Positions 6,502-62,675 of a stretch of DNA of 64,000 nucleotides are shown one piece after another. Below the pieces are notes generated by a model. That model saw only the letters and a list, made by a program, of their open reading frames with translations. It was not told the DNA's origin and did not search any database. Numbering within the stretch: the first letter of the stretch is position 1; the number at the start of each line of letters is the position of its first letter. Origin of the DNA: Alphaproteobacteria bacterium (GTDB taxonomy: Bacteria; Pseudomonadota; Alphaproteobacteria; UBA828); NCBI GenBank assembly GCA_965237415.1, contig CBDEFM010000002.1, positions 608,001 to 672,000 of the forward strand, given 5' to 3'. The translations under genes and the position numbers were made by a program.

Positions 6502-7524
6502 TCAGGGCTCCGGCGTCGCTGCGACGCCACACGTCTCCCTGAGGATGAGTTCCGTTTTCAGAACGATACGCTGCGCCGGGGCGTCAGGATTGTCGATCCG
6601 CTCAATCAGCGTTGCCGCGGCTTGCCTGCCCATCTCCTTCCGCGATACCCGCGTGACGCTCAAGGAAGGGCTGACGAGGCTCGACTCCTCCACATCCTCG
6701 TGGCCGATGAGCGCGAAGTTCTTGCCGGGGAACAGACCTTCCTTCGCCAGGCCATGGAACAGCCCGAGAGCGATCGAATCGTTGTAGCTGATCGCGGCAG
6801 TCGGCCGAGGGTCGAGCCCGGCTACCCAGCGCGCCGCCCTGAAGCCTTCGACACGAGTCGGCACCGACGGCCAGACGAGCGCATCGTCGAAAGCGACCGA
6901 TTCCCGCTCGAGTGCTGCCCGATGGCCGCGCAAACGCTCGCCGAAGGGGCTTGCGCTCGGGTGACCGCCAACAACCGCGATCCGGCGATGGCCCAGGTTC
7001 AGCAATCGCTCCGTCGCCAGCCGGCCTGATTCACGATCGTCGCTTACGACGTAGTCGAAGCCCGAATCCAGCATGGCCCGCGACACGAAGACGAGCGGCG
7101 GCACGGGAACATGTCGAGGAGAAAACTGCTCCATCGTGGAGTCGATTGCCGGAGACACGATGATGCCGTCGGCGTTGTATTCCGCCATCGTCCTGATGAA
7201 ATCGGCCTGTCGCTCGCAGGATTCGTTGGTGTTGCACAGAAAAACGGTCCGGCCGGTCTTCGCCAGCTCCTCTTCCAACGATGCGAGCAAGGAACTGAAG
7301 AACGGATCGGAGACATTGTTGAGGATAACGCCAACGGTGTGGGTCTTGGCCGTGCGAAGGCTCGCTGCGCTGCGGGCGTAGATGTATCCATGTTCCGCCA
7401 GGGCGGCCTTGACGCGATTTCGCGTGTTCAGCGAGATCCTCTCGTTGCCGCGCATGGCGAGCGACACGGTGGCCGTGGAGACACCGAGCTGCTCGGCGAT
7501 GTGACGGAGAGTGGGTCTGGTCAA
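6502..7524 (-). CDS. LacI family transcriptional regulator
   Basis: N-terminal TLRHIAEQLGVSTATVS HTH plus periplasmic-binding-like domain ending LILRET. Confidence 0.92.
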   Translation of the reverse strand: MTRPTLRHIAEQLGVSTATVSLAMRGNERISLNTRNRVKAALAEHGYIYARSAASLRTAKTHTVGVILNNVSDPFFSSLLASLEEELAKTGRTVFLCNTNESCERQADFIRTMAEYNADGIIVSPAIDSTMEQFSPRHVPVPPLVFVSRAMLDSGFDYVVSDDRESGRLATERLLNLGHRRIAVVGGHPSASPFGERLRGHRAALERESVAFDDALVWPSVPTRVEGFRAARWVAGLDPRPTAAISYNDSIALGLFHGLAKEGLFPGKNFALIGHEDVEESSLVSPSLSVTRVSRKEMGRQAAATLIERIDNPDAPAQRIVLKTELILRETCGVAATPEP

Positions 7525-7543
7525 TCCTGTCGGCTCGACGGCC

Positions 7544-7556
7544 TGGTACGTTTACA
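7544..7556. promoter_or_regulatory. Possible LacI-type operator (autoregulation)
   Basis: Imperfect palindrome TGGTACGTTTACA with central CG, ~20 bp upstream of the lacI-like start. Confidence 0.3.
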
Positions 7557-7753
7557 CTCTACCGACCTGCGCCACGCTCGCCCCGAGGGAGTTGAAGCAA
7601 GCGCTGGCTCGCACGCCCGGCACATGCCACGCGCGGCTCTTTCGTGGCGATCCGCCGTCCATACGGCGAAGCGCTCCGAGTGGCGGATCGTCTGGAATCG
7701 GTCAGGGCTCAACAGTGTTCGCATTCCGCGGCGGAGACAAGCGCGAATGCAGT

Positions 7754-8416
7754 TCACGGGTCGCCTGCAGGTCTTGGCGAGGGTGCGGCGCAGGCCGCGA
7801 GGCCGGCGAGCAGGGCCGCAAGCACCACCCAACCCTGCCAGGCCCCCATCGTGATGAGGGTGAGTGCGGAAACCGCAAGCCATAGCGCCGGTACGACACA
7901 TAAAAGGGCCATCCACCGGCTGCGCCCCGCGAGCGCAAGCAGGGCGAGCGTGGCCGCGGCGGTCGGATCGGGCGCGACCGCGAAGACTTCCGCCTCGCGC
8001 CAGGTTCGTCCGTCGAGTCGCGCGAGGAACGGCCAGGCCAGAAGCGCCGCCGCCAGAAGCCCGACGGCGGCCTGAGCCCGTCTCCCGCGCCCGGCGAAAA
8101 GCAGCCGGCCCGAGAGGCCGAGCGCCGCCAAGAGTGCGGCCTCGGCATAGAACCCCCAGGCGAGCGATGGCGCGACCCAATTGACCGTCCCGTAACGCAG
8201 CGCCACGAACTGCCATCCGGCCCAGAGCCATGCCGCAGCGAGCGCAGGGCCGAGCCAACGCGCGGACGGCCGCCACCCCCGCAGCAGGCAGAACGCAAGC
8301 AGCGCGCCTGCCGCCAGCAGCAGCGGCTGCGCCGGCCAGACCGCCTCGTTCTCCAACGCGAAGAGCCGCCAATAGACCCGCGGCTCGAACGGCAGGAGAT
8401 CTTCCAGCCCTGCCAT
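7754..8416 (-). CDS. Membrane protein (DUF6064-like)
   Basis: DLLPFEPRVYWRLF...N..VWPAQ and APDPTA motifs, hydrophobic; follows an aldo/keto reductase. Confidence 0.65.
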   Translation of the reverse strand: MAGLEDLLPFEPRVYWRLFALENEAVWPAQPLLLAAGALLAFCLLRGWRPSARWLGPALAAAWLWAGWQFVALRYGTVNWVAPSLAWGFYAEAALLAALGLSGRLLFAGRGRRAQAAVGLLAAALLAWPFLARLDGRTWREAEVFAVAPDPTAAATLALLALAGRSRWMALLCVVPALWLAVSALTLITMGAWQGWVVLAALLAGLAACAAPSPRPAGDP

Positions 8417-8474
8417 CGCGGGCCTCTATGCCGTCCCCGCCTTCCGCGAATCTCCAGGCCCGAACGGCACGGTC

Positions 8475-26304: not shown

Positions 26305-26824
26305 CTATTGAATGAGTTCCGGGATTTGGGTCGGACGCGGCGTGCGCGCGACGGCGGGGCGTTCGCAGGGCAGGAACTCTCCGTGCCCGGCGTCTGCGCA
26401 GAGCGCGCCATCGCGCCACACCGGCCGCCCGCGCGACAATGTGACGGCAGGCCATGCCCCAAGCGTCATCCCTTCGTAGGGGGTGTAGTCGCAGTCGTGG
26501 TGCAGCCGGTCATTGGTGACGGTCATGGTCCTGGAAGGCGAAGGGGATGATGGTCGTCGTACCACCGCAGGCGGCCGACCGTGAGCCGGTATAGAAGTTG
26601 TCGGCGATCTCGGCCCCGTCGGGCAGGCGCTGCTCCAGGTGGATGTGACCGTCGATGCCGCCGGGGGTGATCGTCCGGCCCGCGGCGTCGATCTCCTCGC
26701 GCCCCCGGTCGAGGGATGAGGCGATGGCCTCGATCCTCCCGGACAAGATGCCGATGTCGCCGGTGAAGACGTCCGCCGGCGTCGCGATTGTCCCGTTGCG
26801 GATCACCAGATCGAATTCGGTCAC
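26305..26824 (-). pseudogene. hydA: Dihydropyrimidinase with large internal deletion
   Basis: N-terminal FDLVIRNG...PGGIDGHIH...AACGGTTT joins out of frame near 26530 to C-terminal LHHDCDYTPYEG...TLSRG...GHGEFL. Confidence 0.85.
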
Positions 26825-26882
26825 GATACCTTCACCTCGCTTCGTTGCCGCCGCTTGTGGTTCCGCGCGCGGGGCGATTGCG

Positions 26883-27755
26883 TCAACCGTGGGCGACCAC
26901 GCGACCCGCCTGCGGTGTCCACTGCAGCAGCCATCTCGATAGCCGATCGAAGATGGCATAGCTGATCGAGGCATAGAACACGAAGATCAGCGCCACTACG
27001 AACATCCTGTCCAGATAGGCGAACTGTTCGGAGTAGATGATGATGTAGCCAAGCCCCGATTGTGCGCCCAGGTACTCTGCACCGAGCACCGCGGCCCACC
27101 CGATGCCGAGGCTAAGCAGGATGGTTCCCCGCAACTCGGGAAATATCGCCGGCAGAACGACGGTGCGGTAGATCTGCAGGCGCGAGGCGCCCAGCGTCCG
27201 GGCATTGTCGATGTAAATCTGCGGGACGTTCTTCACCGCATTGACCACGCCAGCGAAGAAGATGACGCCGACACCGTAGCCGACGAAGGCGATCTTGCCG
27301 ACGAAGTCGATGCCGAACCAGAGCTGAAACATCGGCACCATGGCAAGCAACGGCAAAGTGCGCAAAAACTGAATCGGCAGATCGACGATCCGGCGGGTCC
27401 ACGGCGACCAGGACACCGCGATTCCAAGAAGAGAGCCGAAAACGGCGCCGATGAAGAGCCCGGTGTAGAGCCGCACGATGGTGTCGACCGAGTGGTCCAG
27501 GATGGACAGAACGGCGGCGAGATAGCTCTGCGGCGCACCGGCGGCGACCGAAGGGACGCCCAGCCCGCCCTGCCAGTAGTCCGAGAGTGACAGCAGGGTG
27601 CGACTGAACACGATGTGCCACCCCGGCAGCATCGGCTCCCCCGGAACCGCCTCGGCGGTGAAGATCATCGACAGGATTTGCCAGAGTCCGGCCATCGCGA
27701 GCAGGACCAGGATCGAGACGCGACGGCGGCGGAATTGCGCGATCAGCCACTTCAT
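26883..27755 (-). CDS. ABC transporter permease (nitrate/sulfonate/taurine type)
   Basis: ARTLGAS, VVLPAIFP, AEYLGAQSGLG. Confidence 0.88.
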   Translation of the reverse strand: MKWLIAQFRRRRVSILVLLAMAGLWQILSMIFTAEAVPGEPMLPGWHIVFSRTLLSLSDYWQGGLGVPSVAAGAPQSYLAAVLSILDHSVDTIVRLYTGLFIGAVFGSLLGIAVSWSPWTRRIVDLPIQFLRTLPLLAMVPMFQLWFGIDFVGKIAFVGYGVGVIFFAGVVNAVKNVPQIYIDNARTLGASRLQIYRTVVLPAIFPELRGTILLSLGIGWAAVLGAEYLGAQSGLGYIIIYSEQFAYLDRMFVVALIFVFYASISYAIFDRLSRWLLQWTPQAGRVVAHG

Positions 27756-42610: not shown

Positions 42611-42684
42611 GCCGCGTTTCTCGCCGGGGCCGCTGCCTGCGTCGCGCGGGGCACGCGGTGCGGGCGTGCGCGATACCATATGCC

Positions 42685-42792
42685 GCGCGCACGACCCTGC
42701 GGGCGTGCGAGACTATTCTCTCGCGCGCGAGACCTTTCAGGCTCGCGCGACCTCGGACCATGGTGCGCTGCACGGCGTTCGCCGCTTGCGCC
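42685..42792 (-). repeat. Dispersed repeat copy A (solo, between convergent genes)
   Basis: Reverse complement GGCGCAAGCG...CGCCGTGCAGCGCACCATGGTCCG...GCCTGAAAGGTC...ACGCCCGCAGGGTCGTGCGCGC matches copies at 59621 and 60649. Confidence 0.88.
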
Positions 42793-42854
42793 AGTATCGC
42801 GACATGCAGCGCAAGAGCACACGGGCTGCGGCAGTCAAGGGCAAAAAATCCGGA

Positions 42855-44024
42855 TTAAGACGGAGGAAGCACGTCCTCGGGCGAGTGGGTGAGGGCGACG
42901 GCGCCGAAGAGTTGTGCGGTCGCGGCCGGGTCCGGCTGGATCGCACGGTAGAACGCCGCAAGCGTCTCGGTCGGCTTGGCGAAGCGGGCGAGCTGAGCGG
43001 TGAAACGGTAGTAGGGCAGCAGCCAGTCGTCGCGCGCCCTCCGGTAGTCGGCGAGCGCCTCGTCGAGCGGGCGTCGGCCGCTGAGACCGTCGTCGGCGGC
43101 CTCGGCTACCATCTCGGCGCAGCGGAACGCGGTCGAGATGCCCTGCGCGGTGACCGGGTCCTTCTTCATCCCCGCATCGCCCACCAGCGCCCAGCCGGGG
43201 CCCATTGCCTCGCGCACGAAGGCTCGCGTGCAGCCGCCGTGGAAGCCCTCCGCCCGCTTGGCATCAGGCAACATTGCGCGGAGGTCGGGGGCGACCTCCT
43301 CGACTCGCGCCAGGAACGCCGACTCCCGGTCGCGCCGGGCGGCCACGAACTCATGGTGCATCAGGTTGGCGGCGACCAGGACGGTGCCGTCGCTCGCGGG
43401 AAAGGCGAAGGCGCCTTTGCGCTCACGGATGTAGAGCCGGACATGGTCGAGCGCGATGCCCTCCCAATAGCTCCATATGTTGCTCTGCACGATGGGCTCG
43501 CACAGGGATTCTCGGGCGCCGGCACAGCGCGCGACGACCGAGTTCGGCCCGTCCGCGCCGATCACGAGGCGGGCCCGTTCGACATGCCGCGCGCCGTTCT
43601 GGCCCGCGGCAACGATGCCGGCGACCCTGCCGCTATCCTCAACCAGATCGACGACGCGCACGCCGTCACGAAACTCCGCGCCGGCAGCTACCGCCGCCTC
43701 GGCGAGCACACCGTCGAGCAAGTGCCGGCGGGGCCCGTAGGACTCGTTGCGGCCATTCACCGCCGGCGGCGGACCGCTCAACACGGTGCCGTGCAGGTCG
43801 ACCCGCCAGTCGGTAAAGGGCTCGGCGCGCGCGGCGATCTGCGGCAAGACTCCCCAATCGCGCAGATGGGCGACACCGAGCGGATGGATCAGGTGCGTCG
43901 ATTGCCCCATGTCGCTGGGGAAGCGGTCGCGGTCGAGAAGCAGCACACGGTGGTCCTTGCGTGCCAGCAGCATGGCCGTGGGCGCGCCGGCGCAGCGGGC
44001 ACCGACGACGATCGCGTCGTAGAT
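42855..44024 (-). CDS. NAD(P)/FAD-dependent oxidoreductase (geranylgeranyl-reductase-like); expected start position reads ATC
   Basis: YDAIVVGARCAG, IGADG, GWALVGDAG...DPVTAQGI; GGAGG 6 nt before ATC. Confidence 0.8.
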   Translation of the reverse strand: MYDAIVVGARCAGAPTAMLLARKDHRVLLLDRDRFPSDMGQSTHLIHPLGVAHLRDWGVLPQIAARAEPFTDWRVDLHGTVLSGPPPAVNGRNESYGPRRHLLDGVLAEAAVAAGAEFRDGVRVVDLVEDSGRVAGIVAAGQNGARHVERARLVIGADGPNSVVARCAGARESLCEPIVQSNIWSYWEGIALDHVRLYIRERKGAFAFPASDGTVLVAANLMHHEFVAARRDRESAFLARVEEVAPDLRAMLPDAKRAEGFHGGCTRAFVREAMGPGWALVGDAGMKKDPVTAQGISTAFRCAEMVAEAADDGLSGRRPLDEALADYRRARDDWLLPYYRFTAQLARFAKPTETLAAFYRAIQPDPAATAQLFGAVALTHSPEDVLPPS

Positions 44025-44043
44025 TGCGCGCCTCCCCGGGGCG

Positions 44044-44436
44044 TCAACCCCGCTGGATCGGTGTGACCCAGCCGATGAATGCGCCGGCGCTGTCTTTGAC
44101 CACGGCGAAGCGGCCGGCATCCGGCACGTCGAAGGCCGGGCGGCAGACCTCGCCGCCTGCCTCCGCGACGCCTGCGAGCCGGGCGTCGATATCGTCCACC
44201 GTGATGTAGGAGAACCAATGGTCCGGCACGCCGTCGAAGCCCGTGCCCGGCTTCATCTCGAAGATGCCGGCGGCCATGGCGTCCCCGGCCTTGCAGAGCG
44301 TGTAGGTGCCACCGTCGGCCATCGGGTGCGACTCAAATTGCCAGCCCAGGGTCTCCTGGTAGAACGCCTTGGCCTTGTCGACGCTCCAGGTCATCAGCTC
44401 GTTCCAGAAGAATGTGCCGTGCGGCGTCATCGGCAT
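44044..44436 (-). CDS. VOC/glyoxalase family protein
   Basis: HG.F.WNEL, AKAFY...GW, W..Y..VDD, GRFA...D..GA. Confidence 0.88.
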   Translation of the reverse strand: MPMTPHGTFFWNELMTWSVDKAKAFYQETLGWQFESHPMADGGTYTLCKAGDAMAAGIFEMKPGTGFDGVPDHWFSYITVDDIDARLAGVAEAGGEVCRPAFDVPDAGRFAVVKDSAGAFIGWVTPIQRG

Positions 44437-57631: not shown

Positions 57632-59314
57632 ATGGCCAAGAAGAGAATTCATCTAGCGGAGGAGGCTCGCGCGCGCCTCCTCGAGGGTGTCGATATCCTT
57701 ACCGACGCCGTATCGGTCACGCTCGGCCCGAAGGGCCGCATGGTGATCTATCAGACGGCGGGTGGAGACGGGCGGATCACCAAGGACGGCGCGACCGTCG
57801 CCAAGGAGATCGAGCTCGAGGACCGGCTCCAGAATGTCGGCGCCCGGCTCGTCCGCGAGGCCGCCACCCACACCGAGAAGGTCGCCGGCGACGGCACCAC
57901 CACCGCGACCATCCTCGCCCGCGCGTTGGTCCGCGAGGGCTCCAAGGCGGTTGCGGCGGGCATGAACCCGATGGATTTGCGGCGTGGTATCGACCTCGCC
58001 GTCGCCGCGGTTGTCGAAGAGCTTGGCAAGCGTTCGAAGCGGGTGAAGACCCGCGAGGAGATCAGGCAGGTCGCGACCGTCGCCGCGAACAACGATCCCC
58101 AGGTGGGCGACATGATCTCGCGCGCCATGGAAGAGGTGGGCGAGCGCGGCGTCATCACGATCGAGGAAGCGGCCGGAATCGAGACCGAGCTCGATGTCGT
58201 CGAGGGCATGAATTTCGATAAGGGCTACGTCTCGCCCTATTTCGTGACCAATGCCGAGCGGATGACGGTCGAGCTCGATGACACCTACATCCTGCTGCAT
58301 CAGGACAAGCTCTCCAGCATGCAGGGTCTCCTGCCGGTGCTGGAGCAAGTCGGCCAGACCGGCAAGCCGCTGGTGATCATCGCTGAAGACGTCGACGGCG
58401 AGGCGCTGGCGACACTGGTGGTCAACCGGCTGCGCGGCGGCCTGAAGGCTGCAGCGGCCAAGGCGCCGGCCTTCGGCGATCGGCGCAAGGCCATGCTCCA
58501 GGACATTGCCGTGCTCACTGGCGGCCAGGTGATCAACAGCGAGCTCGGCGTCAAGCTGGAGAACGTCTCGCTCGACATGTTGGGGACGGCCAAACGCGTC
58601 GAGATGAGCAAGGACGAGACCGTGATCATCGGTGGCGGCGGCCGCAAGAAGGATATCGATCAACGCTGCAAGCAGCTTCGCTTCGAGATCGAGACCACCG
58701 ATTCCGAGTATGACCAGGAGCGCTTCGAGGAACGGCTCGCCAAGCTGGTCGGCGGAGTCGCCATTCTGAGGATCGGCGGCGATTCCGAGATCGAGGTCAA
58801 GGAGAAGAAAGAGCTTGTCGACGACGCCATGCGCGCCACGCGCGCGGCGGTGGAGGAGGGGGTCGTTCCCGGCGGCGGCGTGGCGTTGCTGGCGGCCTCC
58901 CGCAAGCTCGGCAAGTTGAAAGGCGCCAACTCCGACCAGGACCGTGGAATCGCCATCGTCAGGAGTGCGATCCGCGCGCCGACCCGCCACATCGCGCAGA
59001 ACGCGGGTGCAGACGGCTCGCTCGTGGTCGGAACGCTGCTCGAAAAGCGCAGCGCAAGCCAGGGCTATGACGCCCAGGAGGGCCGCTACTGCGACATGAT
59101 CGAAGCCGGCATCCTGGATCCGGCGAAGGTCGTCCGCTCCGCTCTCCAGGACGCCGCCTCCATCGCCGGCCTCCTGATTGCGACCGAGGCCGGAATCGTC
59201 GAGATTCCTGAGAAGGCGCCCCCGATGCCGCCCGGCGGCATGGACGGAATGGGTGGTATGGGCGGGATGGGTGGTATGGGCGGAATGGGTGGCATGGGCG
59301 GAATGGGCATGTAG
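57632..59314 (+). CDS. groEL: Chaperonin GroEL (divergent)
   Basis: [29 protein letters not shown] tail. Confidence 0.95.
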
Positions 59315-59338
59315 CCCCGCCCGGTCATCTCGTCGTCT

Positions 59339-59364
59339 GGGAGGGGGCCACGAGGCCCCCTTCC
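59339..59364 (+). terminator. Hairpin after groEL
   Basis: GGGAGGGGGCC-ACGA-GGCCCCCTTCC; weak U-tract. Confidence 0.55.
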
Positions 59365-59432
59365 TCGTATCTGACTCGGATATTCCACCGCGATCGCGGG
59401 CTGCTTCGGGCAGGCGAAGATTTAAATTTACG

Positions 59433-59487
59433 CGGGATTCGCCGGGATTAAGTGGGATTAAGTGGGATAAGTGGGATTCCGTGGGAC
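59433..59487. repeat. Helically phased tandem array of six YGGGA(TTAAG) units
   Basis: Units start at 59433, 59443, 59453, 59463, 59472, 59482; preceded by ATTTAAATTTA. Confidence 0.85.
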
Positions 59488-59620
59488 AGGGTTGCGCACG
59501 CCCGAGTCGCCCGCGCCTGAGAAAGGTCGCGGGCGCGCCAGATAGCGTCGTACGCGCGGAATCGGGTCGCTCACGCCCGCTCATCCTTTCTGCCTTGGCC
59601 CGCTCGTTCGTGCACTGCAA

Positions 59621-59694
59621 GGCGCAAGCGTGGCGCGCACGCCGTGCACCGCACCATGGTCCGGGTCGCGCGGGCCTGAAAGGTCGCGGGCGCG
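59621..59694 (+). repeat. Dispersed repeat copy B (downstream flank of the gp27-like gene)
   Basis: 25 bp identical to copy C (59640-59664 = 60649-60673), plus GCCTGAAAGGTC. Confidence 0.9.
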
Positions 59695-59746
59695 GAATCA
59701 AGAGTCGAGCGCGTGTCCGGCTGCGGCGGAGGCGGAACCCCCGGCC

Positions 59747-60550
59747 TCACCCTGGCCCGCTCCATTCCGAGGGGCAGAAGGGAGGGTCGGTCGGCCAGAG
59801 TCGGCCTTCCGCCTCCCGCCGTCTCAAGTCGGCATCCCGCGCCCTGTGCGCGTCCCATGTATCGTCTGCTTGTGCGCGTGGACGCGCGACGCGCGCCCCG
59901 GGCGCGTCCGCATCCTGCGCCCCGCCGTCAACAGGCGGCTCGGGCGTGGGGTCCGGCGGGGTGACGTGGGAGTCCTCGGCAGAGGCGGCGGCCCACTCGG
60001 AATTGGGCGGCGGCGGGTCTGTGCCCCCAGGGAAGAGGTGCCCCTCCATGGCCCGGCGGACGGTTTCGACCCGTTCGGCATGCGTCATACTGGCCGCGCG
60101 CGCGGCCGGTCCGGCGTGCGGGGCGGCGGCATCGGCTGCCGCCTGCTCGCGCTCGATGCGGAGCTTGTCGGCGCTTTCGATACGGTAGAGCGCGAGGGCA
60201 AGACGGCCGAGGTCCTCGGTCAGCACCGGCTCCTCGCGCGCGCCGAGCTCGGCCATCGTGCGGAGCGCCAGCGTTCGCAGGGTCTCGATCGCGATGAGGG
60301 CGCTGCGGCCCTCGGCGCCGGGCTCGCGGGCGCGCTTCCATTCCTCGGCAAAGCGATCGGTCTCGCGCTGCAGACAGATCAGGCCCTCCATGCGCTCGGC
60401 CCAGCAGCCCTCGTCGGAAGGCGAACTCTCGCCGTCGCGCGAACGGACGCGCGCCACGATCTCGTCCATCGTGGCACCGTCCTCAATCGCTGCGGCCACG
60501 GCGTCCTGGATTGCGGCCGGCAGCGGCTCGTCCGATGAGCCCCCGCCCAT
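59747..60550 (-). CDS. Mu gp27 / DUF3486-like (small terminase-like) protein with low-complexity tail
   Basis: SS...LPAAIQDAV..AI.DGAT.DEIV, IETLRTLA, LGRLALALYRIESA...ERE pattern recognised by eye; GGAG/AGG upstream. Confidence 0.62.
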   Translation of the reverse strand: MGGGSSDEPLPAAIQDAVAAAIEDGATMDEIVARVRSRDGESSPSDEGCWAERMEGLICLQRETDRFAEEWKRAREPGAEGRSALIAIETLRTLALRTMAELGAREEPVLTEDLGRLALALYRIESADKLRIEREQAAADAAAPHAGPAARAASMTHAERVETVRRAMEGHLFPGGTDPPPPNSEWAAASAEDSHVTPPDPTPEPPVDGGAQDADAPGARVARPRAQADDTWDAHRARDADLRRREAEGRLWPTDPPFCPSEWSGPG

Positions 60551-60648
60551 CGCACCTGTCGTGCTCCGCTCGCTCTCGCACTGCGTCGCGCGGATACGCG
60601 CGCGGGAAAATAGTCGACCCATCGCGCGATCCTGGCGCGGGCACCACG

Positions 60649-60736
60649 CGCCGTGCACCGCACCATGGTCCGGCGGCGCGCGTGCCTGAAAGGTCCCGCG
60701 CGCAGAGAGGAGTTACGCCCGCAGGGTCGTGCGCGC
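60649..60736 (+). repeat. Dispersed repeat copy C (upstream flank of the gp27-like gene)
   Basis: Shares 25 bp with copy B and a different 22 bp (60715-60736) with copy A. Confidence 0.9.
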
Positions 60737-60781
60737 ATGGGCGAACAGGTACAGGGGGCTGTAGCGTCCCGCTCTTGGTAT

Positions 60782-61711
60782 CTATTGGGGTTCGTTCTTG
60801 TGCGTCACGCCTTCGGTGGGATCGGTTGTCGCCGCGCCGGCTGATGAGCGGCGCTCGGCTTGCTTGGCCTCCTCCCACAGCCGGTCCAGCTCGGCGAGGC
60901 CGACCTCTCCCGCGTCGCGACCCGATTCCGCCAGCGCCCCCTCCACATGCTGGAAACGGGCCGTGAACTTGGCGTTGGCGGCTCGGAGCGCGGCCTCGGG
61001 CTCGACGCCGAGGTGGCGCGCCAGATTGACGCACGCGAACAAGAGGTCGCCAAGCTCCTCGGAAACCGTGGAGTCCGCCGACGTCGTCGAATCTGTTTTC
61101 GCTGCAGCCTCCCGCAGCTCGGCCACCTCCTCGAGCACCTTGTCGAACACCAGGGCCGCCTCCGGCCAGTCGAAGCCCACACGCGCCGCGCGCTTCTGCA
61201 GCTTCTCGGCGCGCAGCAGGGCAGGGAGGGCCAGCGCCACACCGTCCAGCACGCTGGGCGTGCGCCCTTCCGCCAGCGCCGTGGCGTTGCGCTCGGCAGC
61301 CTTTTGGGTCTCCCAGGCCCGGGTTTGCCCCGGCGACGAGCCGCGGACATCGGTTTCTTCGCCGGCGAAGACGTGGGGATGGCGGCGAATCATCTTCTCC
61401 GCGATGCCGCGCGCGACCGCGTCGAAGTCGAAGCTGCCGTCCTCGCGCGCCATTTGCGCGTGGAAGACGACCTGGAGCAGCAGGTCGCCGAGCTCGTCGC
61501 GGAGCGCCGCCCGGTCATCCTGACGGATCGCCTCGGCAACCTCGTAGGCTTCCTCGATGGTGTAAGGCGCAATCGTCTCGAAGCTCTGTTCGAGGTCCCA
61601 CGGGCAGCCGCCGGCCGGATCGCGCAGCCGCGCCATCACGTCGAGCAGTTGATCGATGCCTGCGGGCAGCGCGTGGTCGTCCTTGCGGCTCGGCGGCGGC
61701 GTATCGCTCAT
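60782..61711 (-). CDS. mazG: Nucleoside triphosphate pyrophosphohydrolase MazG
   Basis: GCPWDLEQ, EEAYEV, ELGDLLLQVVFH, RRHPHVF, GFDW, EELGDLLF. Confidence 0.95.
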   Translation of the reverse strand: MSDTPPPSRKDDHALPAGIDQLLDVMARLRDPAGGCPWDLEQSFETIAPYTIEEAYEVAEAIRQDDRAALRDELGDLLLQVVFHAQMAREDGSFDFDAVARGIAEKMIRRHPHVFAGEETDVRGSSPGQTRAWETQKAAERNATALAEGRTPSVLDGVALALPALLRAEKLQKRAARVGFDWPEAALVFDKVLEEVAELREAAAKTDSTTSADSTVSEELGDLLFACVNLARHLGVEPEAALRAANAKFTARFQHVEGALAESGRDAGEVGLAELDRLWEEAKQAERRSSAGAATTDPTEGVTHKNEPQ

Positions 61712-61827
61712 CGTTCAGGTGCCGTCGTCACAATTGCGAGAAGAAGGGGACGGCTGCTCCCAGGGTCGGGGAGAACCGCAGACACCGCATTGTAGACCGG
61801 TCGGGATGCCTGCTGGGCCTGAGATGT

Positions 61828-61855
61828 AATTCGCATAAGATATATTATGGAAAAT
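61828..61855 (+). other. dif: Chromosome dimer resolution site dif (XerC/XerD)
   Basis: AATTCGCATAA-GATATA-TTATGGAAAAT in an AT-rich intergenic patch; KOPS octamers converge on it. Confidence 0.85.
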
Positions 61856-61904
61856 ATTGTCCAGATCGCATAGTGTGTGGCGGTGCAATGGCTTACGGAA
61901 CGCA

Positions 61905-62675
61905 TCACAGCCGATCCGTCTCGATCGTGAGCCCGTCATGGCCCGGCACCACATCGGTCGGTAACGCATCCCGCAGCGTCTCGTAGTCGAACTGATGCGA
62001 CATGTGCGTCAGCACGGCGAGCCGCGGCCTTACCCGCGCGATCCATTCCAACGTGAGGTCCAAATGCGCGTGCGTCGGGTGTTCGCGGTAGCCGAGGCAA
62101 TCGACGATCCAGAGACGCACGCCGTCGAGCGCCGCGAAGGCCTCCTCCGGCAGCGCCTTCACGTCGGTCGAATAGGCCATATCCCCGATCCGGTACCCCG
62201 TGGTGATGCTGCGTCCGTGCCCCTGCGGAAATGGGGTCACGTCGATACCGCCAGCAGCGAACGGGCCGTCGATTTCGACCGCGTTGAGGCTGGGCTTGGC
62301 CCATCCGGCCGTGCCCATGGGCTCGAACGCGTAGGCGAAACGCTCCCTGATGGCCGCCAGCGTGGCAGCCGAGCCGTAGGTATCGAGCGCCCGCCCCATT
62401 TGAAAATTGATCGAGCGCAGGTCGTCGATCCCGTGCACGTGATCGGCATGACCATGGGTGTAAAGCACGGCATCGAGGCGCGAGACTTCCGCATCGACCA
62501 GCTGTGCATGCAGGTCTGGCGGTGTGTCGATCAGGAGCCGGGCGTGATCCGAATCGACCAGCACGGAGACCCGGCGCCGGCGGTTGCGGGGGTCCGACGA
62601 GCGGCAGACCGCGCAGTCGCAGCCGATCATCGGGACTCCGCTCGACGTGCCGCAGCCGAGAACGGTTATTTTCAT
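61905..62675 (-). CDS. MBL-fold metallo-hydrolase (PhnP-like)
   Basis: LGCGTSSGVP, THGHADHVHG, AYSTD, THMSH. Confidence 0.9.
   Translation of the reverse strand: MKITVLGCGTSSGVPMIGCDCAVCRSSDPRNRRRRVSVLVDSDHARLLIDTPPDLHAQLVDAEVSRLDAVLYTHGHADHVHGIDDLRSINFQMGRALDTYGSAATLAAIRERFAYAFEPMGTAGWAKPSLNAVEIDGPFAAGGIDVTPFPQGHGRSITTGYRIGDMAYSTDVKALPEEAFAALDGVRLWIVDCLGYREHPTHAHLDLTLEWIARVRPRLAVLTHMSHQFDYETLRDALPTDVVPGHDGLTIETDRL

Follow-up and report, generated by a model that had tools for sequence, protein, structure and literature searches.

A genus-specific repeated unit joins Mu gp27-like genes to phased GGGAY arrays and shares an upstream box with dispersed phage-derived genes

In the 64,000-nt stretch of an alphaproteobacterial genome analysed here (the window; contig CBDEFM010000002.1, positions 608,001 to 672,000), a single gene resembling the small terminase gene gp27 of phage Mu lies between groEL and mazG, beside a phased array of GGGAY decamers. 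We tentatively read this region as one old copy of a genus-specific repeated unit, in which the gp27-like genes would encode the DNA-recognition subunits, and the arrays form the pac-like sites, of a dispersed, domesticated phage-derived system akin to a gene transfer agent (GTA), and we judge the case for this reading to be nearly evenly balanced. Sequence comparison shows that one box heads a genus-wide set of head, tail and packaging genes of phage origin, spread over several loci, and that the gp27-like genes carry it too. [quoted passage not shown] The full unit appears to consist of an AT-rich spacer, the phased array, a gp27-like gene (helix-turn-helix (HTH) plus coiled coil) reading toward the array, a box-headed leader and GC-rich hairpins. 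The initial annotation of this locus had described the layout correctly, in that its 25-mer repeats, hairpin modules and six-unit GGGAY array were all located where claimed.

The open reading frame (ORF) at 59747-60550 on the minus strand matched PF11985 (Phage_Mu_Gp27, DUF3486) with an E value of 3.1e-9 and 37.9 bits (cut-off 28) over residues 10-170, covering profile positions 4-171 of 173, and PHROG 426 (terminase small subunit) with an E value of 1.3e-9, as anticipated by the initial annotation. PF11985 is the sole Pfam match of the protein, which has no catalytic domain and is not an HUH/Y1 transposase; compact paralogues score 85-87 bits. The likelier start is ATG 60622, which lies 7 nt after AGGA and affords 291 residues, and database homologues are 279-312 aa long. 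The protein is predicted to open with an HTH region, followed by long helices and a disordered tail rich in Pro and Asp, and its C-terminal WPTDPPFCPSEWSGPG is conserved. An AlphaFold2 (AF2) model is all-alpha with a mean pLDDT of 74, and includes short N-terminal helices, long helices at 44-74, 80-104 and 111-142, disorder at 171-230 and a short conserved C-terminal part. Among 1.84 billion cluster representatives, only 172 match the protein at E<=1e-3. Members of a canonical subfamily share 31-37% identity with the DUF3486 proteins of Chromohalobacter phage YPCBV-1 and of Pseudomonas Mu-like phages; the canonical subfamily found phage matches by tblastn, and the window ORF found none among phages. 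Subfamily 1 possesses an extra ~100-aa disordered tail with a conserved end. In phage YPCBV-1, the DUF3486 gene is followed by the large terminase gene (TerL, phrog_2) and then by the portal gene.

At the heart of the 25-mer lies a conserved 17-nt box, ACCATGGTGCGGTGCAC, whose centre, CACCATGGTG, is palindromic. In the analysed genome (G000; 96% complete, 6% contamination), the box occurs at 74 sites with up to 2 mismatches, most of them <700 nt from an array and 14 at gp27-like loci. The same box stands upstream of a Mu-type portal gene, a DUF5675 gene and two head-maturation protease genes, one of which leads into scaffold and major capsid genes and the other into tail genes (Table 1). The upstream regions of the gp27-like, portal, DUF5675 and both protease genes align over the box and the downstream GATCGnGCCATG, and 5 of the 12 portal loci examined in other species have an exact 15-mer of the box upstream of the portal gene. 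The TerL homologue and portal occupy C2:1226522-1230969 on the main contig (C2), ~560 kb from the window gene, which is adjacent to neither. The TerL, portal, protease, scaffold, capsid and tail genes were found by tblastn with phage TerL and with PF06074, PF17289 and PHROGs; genome searches with the Pfam terminase and capsid families PF03237, PF03354, PF04466, PF05876, PF05065, PF10124, PF10123 and PF04233 gave no match. Gene calls outside the window used simple ORF and third-position GC (GC3) criteria plus family matches. A connection to packaging had already been proposed for the locus, and it is now much stronger, because the box within the flanking repeat is shared with portal, protease/capsid and tail operons. 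Separately, a gene for a 450-aa RTX-repeat protein (HemolysinCabind, 9e-43) lies between the TerL homologue and the box-headed portal (L144, G000 C2:1221000-1240999, at 7075-8427).

We compared 21 genomes of the genus (G000 and 20 others) with 20 genomes outside it. With up to 1 mismatch, the box is present in 17 of the 20 other genus genomes at 9-65 copies, with none in G012, G015 or G016 and none in the 20 outside the genus. PF11985 gp27-like genes follow the same pattern (17/20, absent from the same three genomes), with a single copy in 1 of the 20 outside genomes (G025). The genes number 10-19 copies per genome, and their ORFs are mostly open across many species. The major capsid gene was found in 16/20 other genus genomes, single copy in most and 92-98% identical, with none in G012, G015, G016 and G018 and in 0/20 outside; across the genus, it is more conserved than MazG (75-95% identical). 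Among the genus genomes searched, Portal_Mu was found in 18/20 others (19/21 with G000), with none in G012 and G016 and partial matches in G015 and G032. Array counts correlate with PF11985 counts across the 21 genomes (Spearman 0.81), a value that is descriptive only, as the genomes are related. G013 and G002, both of the genus, carry an extra divergent capsid (36-38% identical), a portal and canonical 181-aa gp27 copies (e.g. G013:C16:166038-166955 and G013:C6:359225-359722), which by their sequences suggests true Mu-like prophages beside the conserved dispersed set. The largest expansion seen is in G009, with 1065 array-pattern matches and 15 PF11985 genes; this genus genome also holds at least 22 near-identical IS630-type copies with ends CTAGAGCATATCCGAG..., which are unrelated to the MITE ends described below.

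A copy count confirmed that ORF, repeats and array recur together as a unit in the genome and in relatives. Searching G000 by tblastn with the window ORF returned 12 places at E<1e-13, or ~11 loci; identity is 75-82% at five and 41-52% at four, the others being fragments. Paralogous full units align to the window from 59421/59440 to 60666-60703, and similarity to the window unit stops at ~60703. A chain search for at least 3 GGGAY units identified 67 arrays, nearly all GGGATTCGCCGGGATTAAGTGGGATTAAGTGGGAT..., and an array lies on the 3' side at 9/11 ORF loci by strict regex, with an array fragment at a tenth. ORFs of the compact subfamily extend into the array, which thus overlaps their 3' end. 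The arrays are far better conserved than the remainder of the unit and show no strand preference on C2 (30 on the plus and 31 on the minus strand, counted manually). Most have no ORF and keep only the gene leader. At 38 of 39 array-linked boxes, the preceding 75 nt are homologous to this leader, scoring above all 20 of their own shuffles, and ORF-less units are therefore internal-deletion derivatives; those with both ends found (n=28) span 210-475 nt. The window unit, at ~1.3 kb and with its ORF intact, is not a small non-coding MITE, a description that the ORF-less copies fit. Searching by tblastn with the leader peptides was uninformative owing to their shortness. Truncated or frameshifted copies also exist (P1800, P94, P1805), as do TGA/TAG stops in relatives.

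Repeats do bound the unit as originally described, but they are far from unique: the 25-mer occurs 4 times in G000, GCCTGAAAGGTC 35 times, CACCATGGTCCGG 31 times and AAGTGGGAT 177 times. The possibility that they are merely an abundant intergenic repeat is thus correct as to abundance and incorrect as to association, as the repeat is specifically tied to this ORF family. A further repeated module, CGCGCCGAATGGCGCGTAGGCAAGCGAGCGGAGC...GTTGAGGGA, accompanies some arrays and ORF units (upstream of G000 C2 1837472, 2013505, 3851917 and 3493290, and at P1398 2235-2360). Another array unit harbors an IS1595-family element of ~1.8 kb in its AT-rich spacer (L097, G000 C2:2415800-2418900, ~700-2520), with DDE_Tnp_IS1595 (4e-46), a zinc ribbon, a low-GC passenger region, inverted repeats GGCGATTATCCCCTTGACGTACGT and a duplication of ~8 bp.

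Roughly one array in three has CCCG[C/G]ATTTCTC[A/G]CC... ahead of it, typically 67-70 nt upstream; this sequence is the inverted repeat found at the ends of an abundant MITE. Its core gave 169 matches in G000, where at least 20 complete MITE copies of 262-264 bp are present. By strict regex, the left repeat was found at 21/67 arrays, an inverted one downstream at 11/67 and both at 6/67; simple arithmetic from match density predicts ~0.3 arrays with a left repeat within 140 nt upstream by chance, versus the 21 observed. Many units are bounded by this repeat, and the units were therefore apparently dispersed as non-autonomous transposable units. The arrays sit just past stop codons and between convergent genes: at 23/67, a co-oriented coding ORF ends within ~110 nt upstream, mostly with the repeat end directly after the stop codon. 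The triplet before the 169 MITE ends is TAG in 81 cases, TAA in 14 and TGA in 7 (102 stop codons). Elements of the IS630/Tc1 type duplicate TA on insertion. As read from these sequences, the junction symmetry TAG/CCCG...CGGG/CTA (slashes mark junctions) is consistent with duplication of TA and a terminal G or A; an element entering a stop codon at its TA would thereby restore the stop. The MITE ends appear to regenerate TAG on both sides, and many copies therefore abut stop codons.

In G004, a sister species with a MazG 95% identical to that of G000, a ~300-bp MITE lies inside the TTTAAATTT spacer of the unit orthologous to that of the window (L053, G004 C1:3906502-3911526); the spacer in G000 is uninterrupted. 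Its right junction, ...CCGGGT/TA/AATTTACGC, is clean and its left junction mutated. The MITE family thus seems to have moved after the G000/G004 split. Both MITE-type ends of the window unit itself are degenerate. A transposase with the repeat's ends (form CCCG[C/G]ATTTCTCAC) was found neither among 11 IS630-type genes in G000 nor at 30 genus loci checked, and PF13359 is absent. Pairs of MITE ends 1-3 kb apart were considered as a transposase element and rejected, as they enclose host genes. Apparent repeat joints in public Logan contigs, in which repeats are collapsed, proved to be other repeat copies and speak neither for nor against excision or expression.

The age of the units was assessed at 60 of the 69 array sites of G004. 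Of these, 41 are syntenic with G000, and an array is present in G000 at 41/41. The other 19 are non-syntenic, and ~12 of them have one flank abutting a G000 array (e.g. L037, L039, L044, L063, L066, L076, L077, L079, L085); units therefore often mark rearrangement or island boundaries. At the groEL-mazG site, ORF and array are present in G000, G004 and G007, array and box without ORF in G014 and G017, and the box only in G032, while G003, G008, G012, G015, G016 and G018 have short, clean intergenic regions. The window copy is thus orthologous in G004 with remnants elsewhere, and is therefore old with no recent insertion. A recent insertion is not supported, given remnants in four species beyond G004 and the full sharing of syntenic array sites, and self-driven spread is disfavored by a unit that encodes no recombinase. 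Orthology across relatives, which would speak against mobility, was found in part. Selection was estimated from dN/dS between G000 and G004, which for six gp27-like orthologue pairs was 0.31-0.59, all below 1 (window ORF 0.39). At silent sites, the paralogues of this genome differ no more than the orthologues do, suggesting gene conversion.

Under the reading we tentatively favor, the box would serve as a promoter/operator shared across a domesticated GTA-like particle system encoded at several loci. By their linkage and co-distribution, the gp27-like proteins would be the small terminase subunits through which this system recognises DNA, with the arrays as putative binding sites, where rings or other oligomers could bind repeats on one helix face. 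Array-bound gp27-like proteins might then recruit the large terminase and portal, and packaging of host DNA would start at ~67 defined chromosomal sites. The gene looks like a member of a resident phage-derived set and not like a parasite, in disagreement with the hijacking of packaging first proposed. A bolder version holds that this is an undescribed Mu-type, multi-locus GTA-like system with non-random packaging, in which ~10 diversified small-terminase paralogues recognise GGGAY arrays sown at ~70 sites by MITE-like transposition, such that the whole chromosome is exported from pac sites in a programmed generalised transduction; we regard this version as doubtful.

Several observations weigh against a packaging role. 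The function is inferred from linkage and co-distribution, and we know of no precedent for ten or more terminase-like paralogues, which could instead be selfish cargo. No exact box lies upstream of TerL, just a degenerate, oppositely oriented one. The gp27-like match is one of sequence family, and a small-terminase fold found no confirmation in structure searches: by Foldseek, the top PDB match was the G20C small terminase at E 0.96, the best BFVD match of the AF2 model had an E value of 0.039, VIA wide gave a Z of 6.5, these being uninformative generic helical hairpins, and a sequence search of solved structures with the window protein found no match. The family assignment therefore rests on sequence, because the fold searches gave nothing significant. 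In the region of the SRSAVGRY motif, the window copy reads SDEGCWAE, placing Cys in an Arg column that is at least 90% conserved and that the G004 orthologue and the paralogues retain; this copy may therefore be decaying or impaired. The gp27-like genes also evolve fast, their dN/dS range comparing with 0.149 for mazG and 0.137 for a metallo-β-lactamase (MBL) gene. Finally, the distribution is imperfect. G032 has 3 PF11985 matches and 37 boxes with no array by the pattern used; G018 has boxes and a portal with no capsid found by this query; and G021, of the same order and another family, has 19 array matches with no PF11985 gene and no box.

The best-surviving alternative, which we consider unlikely, is a selfish MITE-like family that happens to carry a DNA-binding gene of phage origin together with a promoter of the phage late type; the arrays would serve its own transposition or regulation (e.g. 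end recognition, or synapsis with a trans-acting transposase) and not packaging. The inverted repeats shared with the 262-264 bp MITE, TA-type junctions, ORF-less deletion derivatives, placement at stop codons and between convergent genes, and relaxed selection on the ORFs would all be expected from such a family. Nonetheless, the 11 IS630-type genes of G000 and the 30 genus loci supplied no transposase with these ends, no new insertion appeared at the 41/41 syntenic G000/G004 sites, and such a family leaves unexplained why, in G012, G015 and G016, portal and capsid were lost along with the box, the arrays and the gp27-like genes.

Considerably less probable is neutral debris of an ancient Mu-like prophage, in which terminase-like genes and their promoter were duplicated, scattered by repeats or rearrangements, and now decay slowly with no present function. 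Truncated and frameshifted copies, the Arg-to-Cys change in the window copy, and the 19/60 non-syntenic G004 array sites, ~12 with a flank abutting a G000 array, suit this scenario. Decay is harder to reconcile with ORFs that are mostly open across many species, dN/dS <1 in 6/6 orthologue pairs, arrays conserved far better than the rest of the unit and a capsid 92-98% identical across the genus. We give marginally less weight again to host-domesticated DNA-binding proteins, whereby gp27-like paralogues would bind arrays at gene ends and organise the chromosome or terminate or insulate transcription, with no particle involved. Such a role accords with where the arrays sit (just past stop codons, between convergent genes), with the terminator-like hairpin and T/A run that adjoin the array and with the long-term stability of array sites; the even strand distribution on C2 does not fit it, and the box shared with head, tail and portal genes is left unexplained. 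An autonomous one-gene mini mobile element inserting by itself next to dif is highly improbable: the unit is indeed repeat-bounded and multicopy, but its protein is all-alpha, matches PF11985 only and has no catalytic domain, the window copy is orthologous in G004 with remnants in G007, G014, G017 and G032, and a dif 1.1 kb away is irrelevant to the 66 other arrays.

The window unit itself is compound (Table 1). An exact 25-mer, CGCCGTGCACCGCACCATGGTCCGG, occurs twice, each copy followed by a GCCTGAAAGGTC hairpin module, and the apparent direct repeat arises because an ORF-less unit (array, leader remnant, box and hairpin) stands head to tail with the leader, box and hairpin of the intact gene. 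The leader remnant aligns to the true leader with a score of 35, versus a maximum of 13 in 20 shuffles, and the minus-strand translation of this region begins LQCTNERAKAERMSG..., like the start of the gene (from ORF 57653-59701, minus strand). The left terminal module was delineated by alignment of the left ends of other array units and matches the inserted MITE end at ~19/30 bases, counted by eye from the window and G004 sequences. A terminator-like match at 59404-59419 with a T/A run adjoins the array. No transposase, integrase or other phage gene was found among the ORFs between groEL and mazG, in agreement with the initial annotation, and an Rfam search of 59200-62000 returned nothing relevant. 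The neighborhood had been given as hflX-mazG; mazG is indeed adjacent, whereas the other direct neighbor is groEL and not hflX.

Table 1. Features of the window unit and of related loci in G000. Positions are window coordinates unless marked C2.
Feature	Position	Strand	Remarks
groEL	57632-59314	+	Left neighbor of unit
Degenerate left terminal module	59376-59419	+	Resembles ~27-nt inverted repeat CCCG[C/G]ATTTCTCACC... of the genome's MITE family; preceded by TGA
AT-rich spacer TTTAAATTTACGC	59420-59433	+	TA target for insertions; terminator-like together with preceding short hairpin
Phased array, six GGGAY units, 9-10 bp period	59434-59487	+	Candidate pac-like binding site of gp27-like protein
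GC-rich hairpin (module B, family D2), like repetitive extragenic palindromes (REP-like)	59506-59538	+	Third hairpin copy 59510-59539; RNA fold -22.6 kcal/mol
Remnant of leader and 5' end of a deleted gp27-like copy	59560-59639	-	Reads LQCTNERAKAERMSGRE... versus TQCESERSTTGAMGGG in intact gene
Box copy 1	59640-59664	-	17-nt motif ACCATGGTGCGGTGCAC; part of ORF-less unit; site C2:667660
GC-rich hairpin (module B)	59664-59696	+	-17.3 kcal/mol; GCCTGAAAGGTC module at 59667-59696
Mu gp27/small-terminase-like gene	59747-60622	-	291 aa from ATG 60622, or 267 aa from ATG 60550
Leader with ribosome-binding site	60623-60648	-	AGGA at 60630-60633
Box copy 2	60649-60673	-	17-nt motif 38 nt upstream of ATG; putative promoter/operator
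Two GC-rich hairpins	B 60676-60703, B2 ~60716-60738	+	GCCTGAAAGGTC module at 60677-60706
mazG	60782-61711	-	Right neighbor of unit
Large-terminase (TerL) homologue	2 kb upstream of portal		37% identity to phage TerL; phrog_2, PF17289
Mu-type portal, box upstream	C2 1229641-1230969		PF06074, 7e-87
Head-maturation protease 1, box upstream, then scaffold and major capsid	C2 24813-25982; capsid 26352-27323		phrog_976; scaffold phrog_673; capsid phrog_1005, 9e-70
Head-maturation protease 2, box upstream, then major tail, tail chaperone, tape-measure piece	C2 1131928-1132995		phrog_976; tail phrog_807, phrog_1442, tape-measure families
DUF5675 gene, box upstream	C2 1209044-1209526		PF18925, phrog_1501
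MITE copies	e.g. C2 588865-589127, 763188-763450, 2089682-2089944		Ends TAG/CCCGCATTTCTCAC...GTGAGAAATGCGGG/CTA

The closest relatives of the protein are the small terminase subunits (TerS) of Mu-like phages (Mu gp27/DUF3486), which belong to the same sequence family and are 31-37% identical to the canonical paralogues. The modular TerS plan described in PMC6854486 is matched by its predicted build, in which long helices follow a helical, DNA-binding N-terminal region. In contrast to the phage genes, however, those described here lie away from TerL and portal, occur at 10-19 copies per genome and are each tied to a phased array; subfamily 1 has its additional tail, and the window copy lacks the conserved Arg. 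As in GTAs such as RcGTA, the head, tail and packaging genes of phage origin in this genus reside at several chromosomal loci, are conserved by descent through the lineage and appear co-regulated. According to PMC6854486, the RcGTA small terminase lacks the DNA-binding domain at its N-terminus, and GTAs are not known to have discrete sites at which packaging starts. Here, by comparison, the terminase-like proteins keep the HTH region and are multicopy and array-linked, the portal and TerS are of Mu type, and the particles are putative.

Among mobile repeats, the family resembles TA-targeting (Tc1/IS630-like) MITEs in its terminal inverted repeats, TA-type junctions, small non-autonomous copies and absence of an internal transposase. 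It differs in the non-catalytic terminase-like protein encoded by its parent unit, in the phased array and phage-type box that the units contain, and in ends that regenerate TAG on both sides. REPIN-RAYT systems, as described in PMC3116915, PMC8049555 and 10.1101/2021.07.10.451892, similarly pair lineage-restricted, vertically inherited, long-lived repeats with a cognate, repeat-flanked protein gene. Here, however, the protein is not an HUH/Y1 transposase, the gene is multicopy, and the repeats are phased decamer arrays and a box instead of REP doublets. Unlike a dif-integrating element (IMEX), the window unit is not flanked by dif; the dif-like sequence lies 1.1 kb off beyond mazG and the 66 other arrays are dispersed elsewhere, leaving little relevance for the proximity to dif emphasized at the outset. 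Literature searches on Mu gp27 small terminases and on Mu-like GTAs yielded no description of such a system, and DUF3486 turned up in one phage genome report.

How GTAs choose the DNA they package is an open question, and the one characterised GTA small terminase has no DNA-binding domain (PMC6854486). This genus appears to show the opposite design, with a predicted DNA-binding region retained in 10-19 copies, each array-linked, and a box common to capsid, portal and tail genes. Should the arrays prove to be where packaging begins, the host would have a new means of aiming phage-derived machinery at its own genome. Should they not, the family still ties a MITE population to a non-catalytic phage protein and shows transposon ends whose design regenerates stop codons.

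Some further observations concern related sequences. Phased GGGACAAAGT arrays in G021 (e.g. C17:340833-340867) may be independent of the array studied here or an older relative of it. The window also contains a solitary, small, array-less unit at 42614-42800, with TAA, a MITE-type end, GC hairpins, a 17-nt box at 42757 and a leader-like ATGCAG. The 420-aa ORF behind this box (42804-44066) was considered and set aside as probably spurious, with no family match and an antisense-like composition. Lastly, a dif-like candidate sequence, AATTCGCATAAGATATATTATGGAAAAT, lies at ~61828-61855 between mazG and the MBL-fold gene and is seemingly unrelated to the repeat family.

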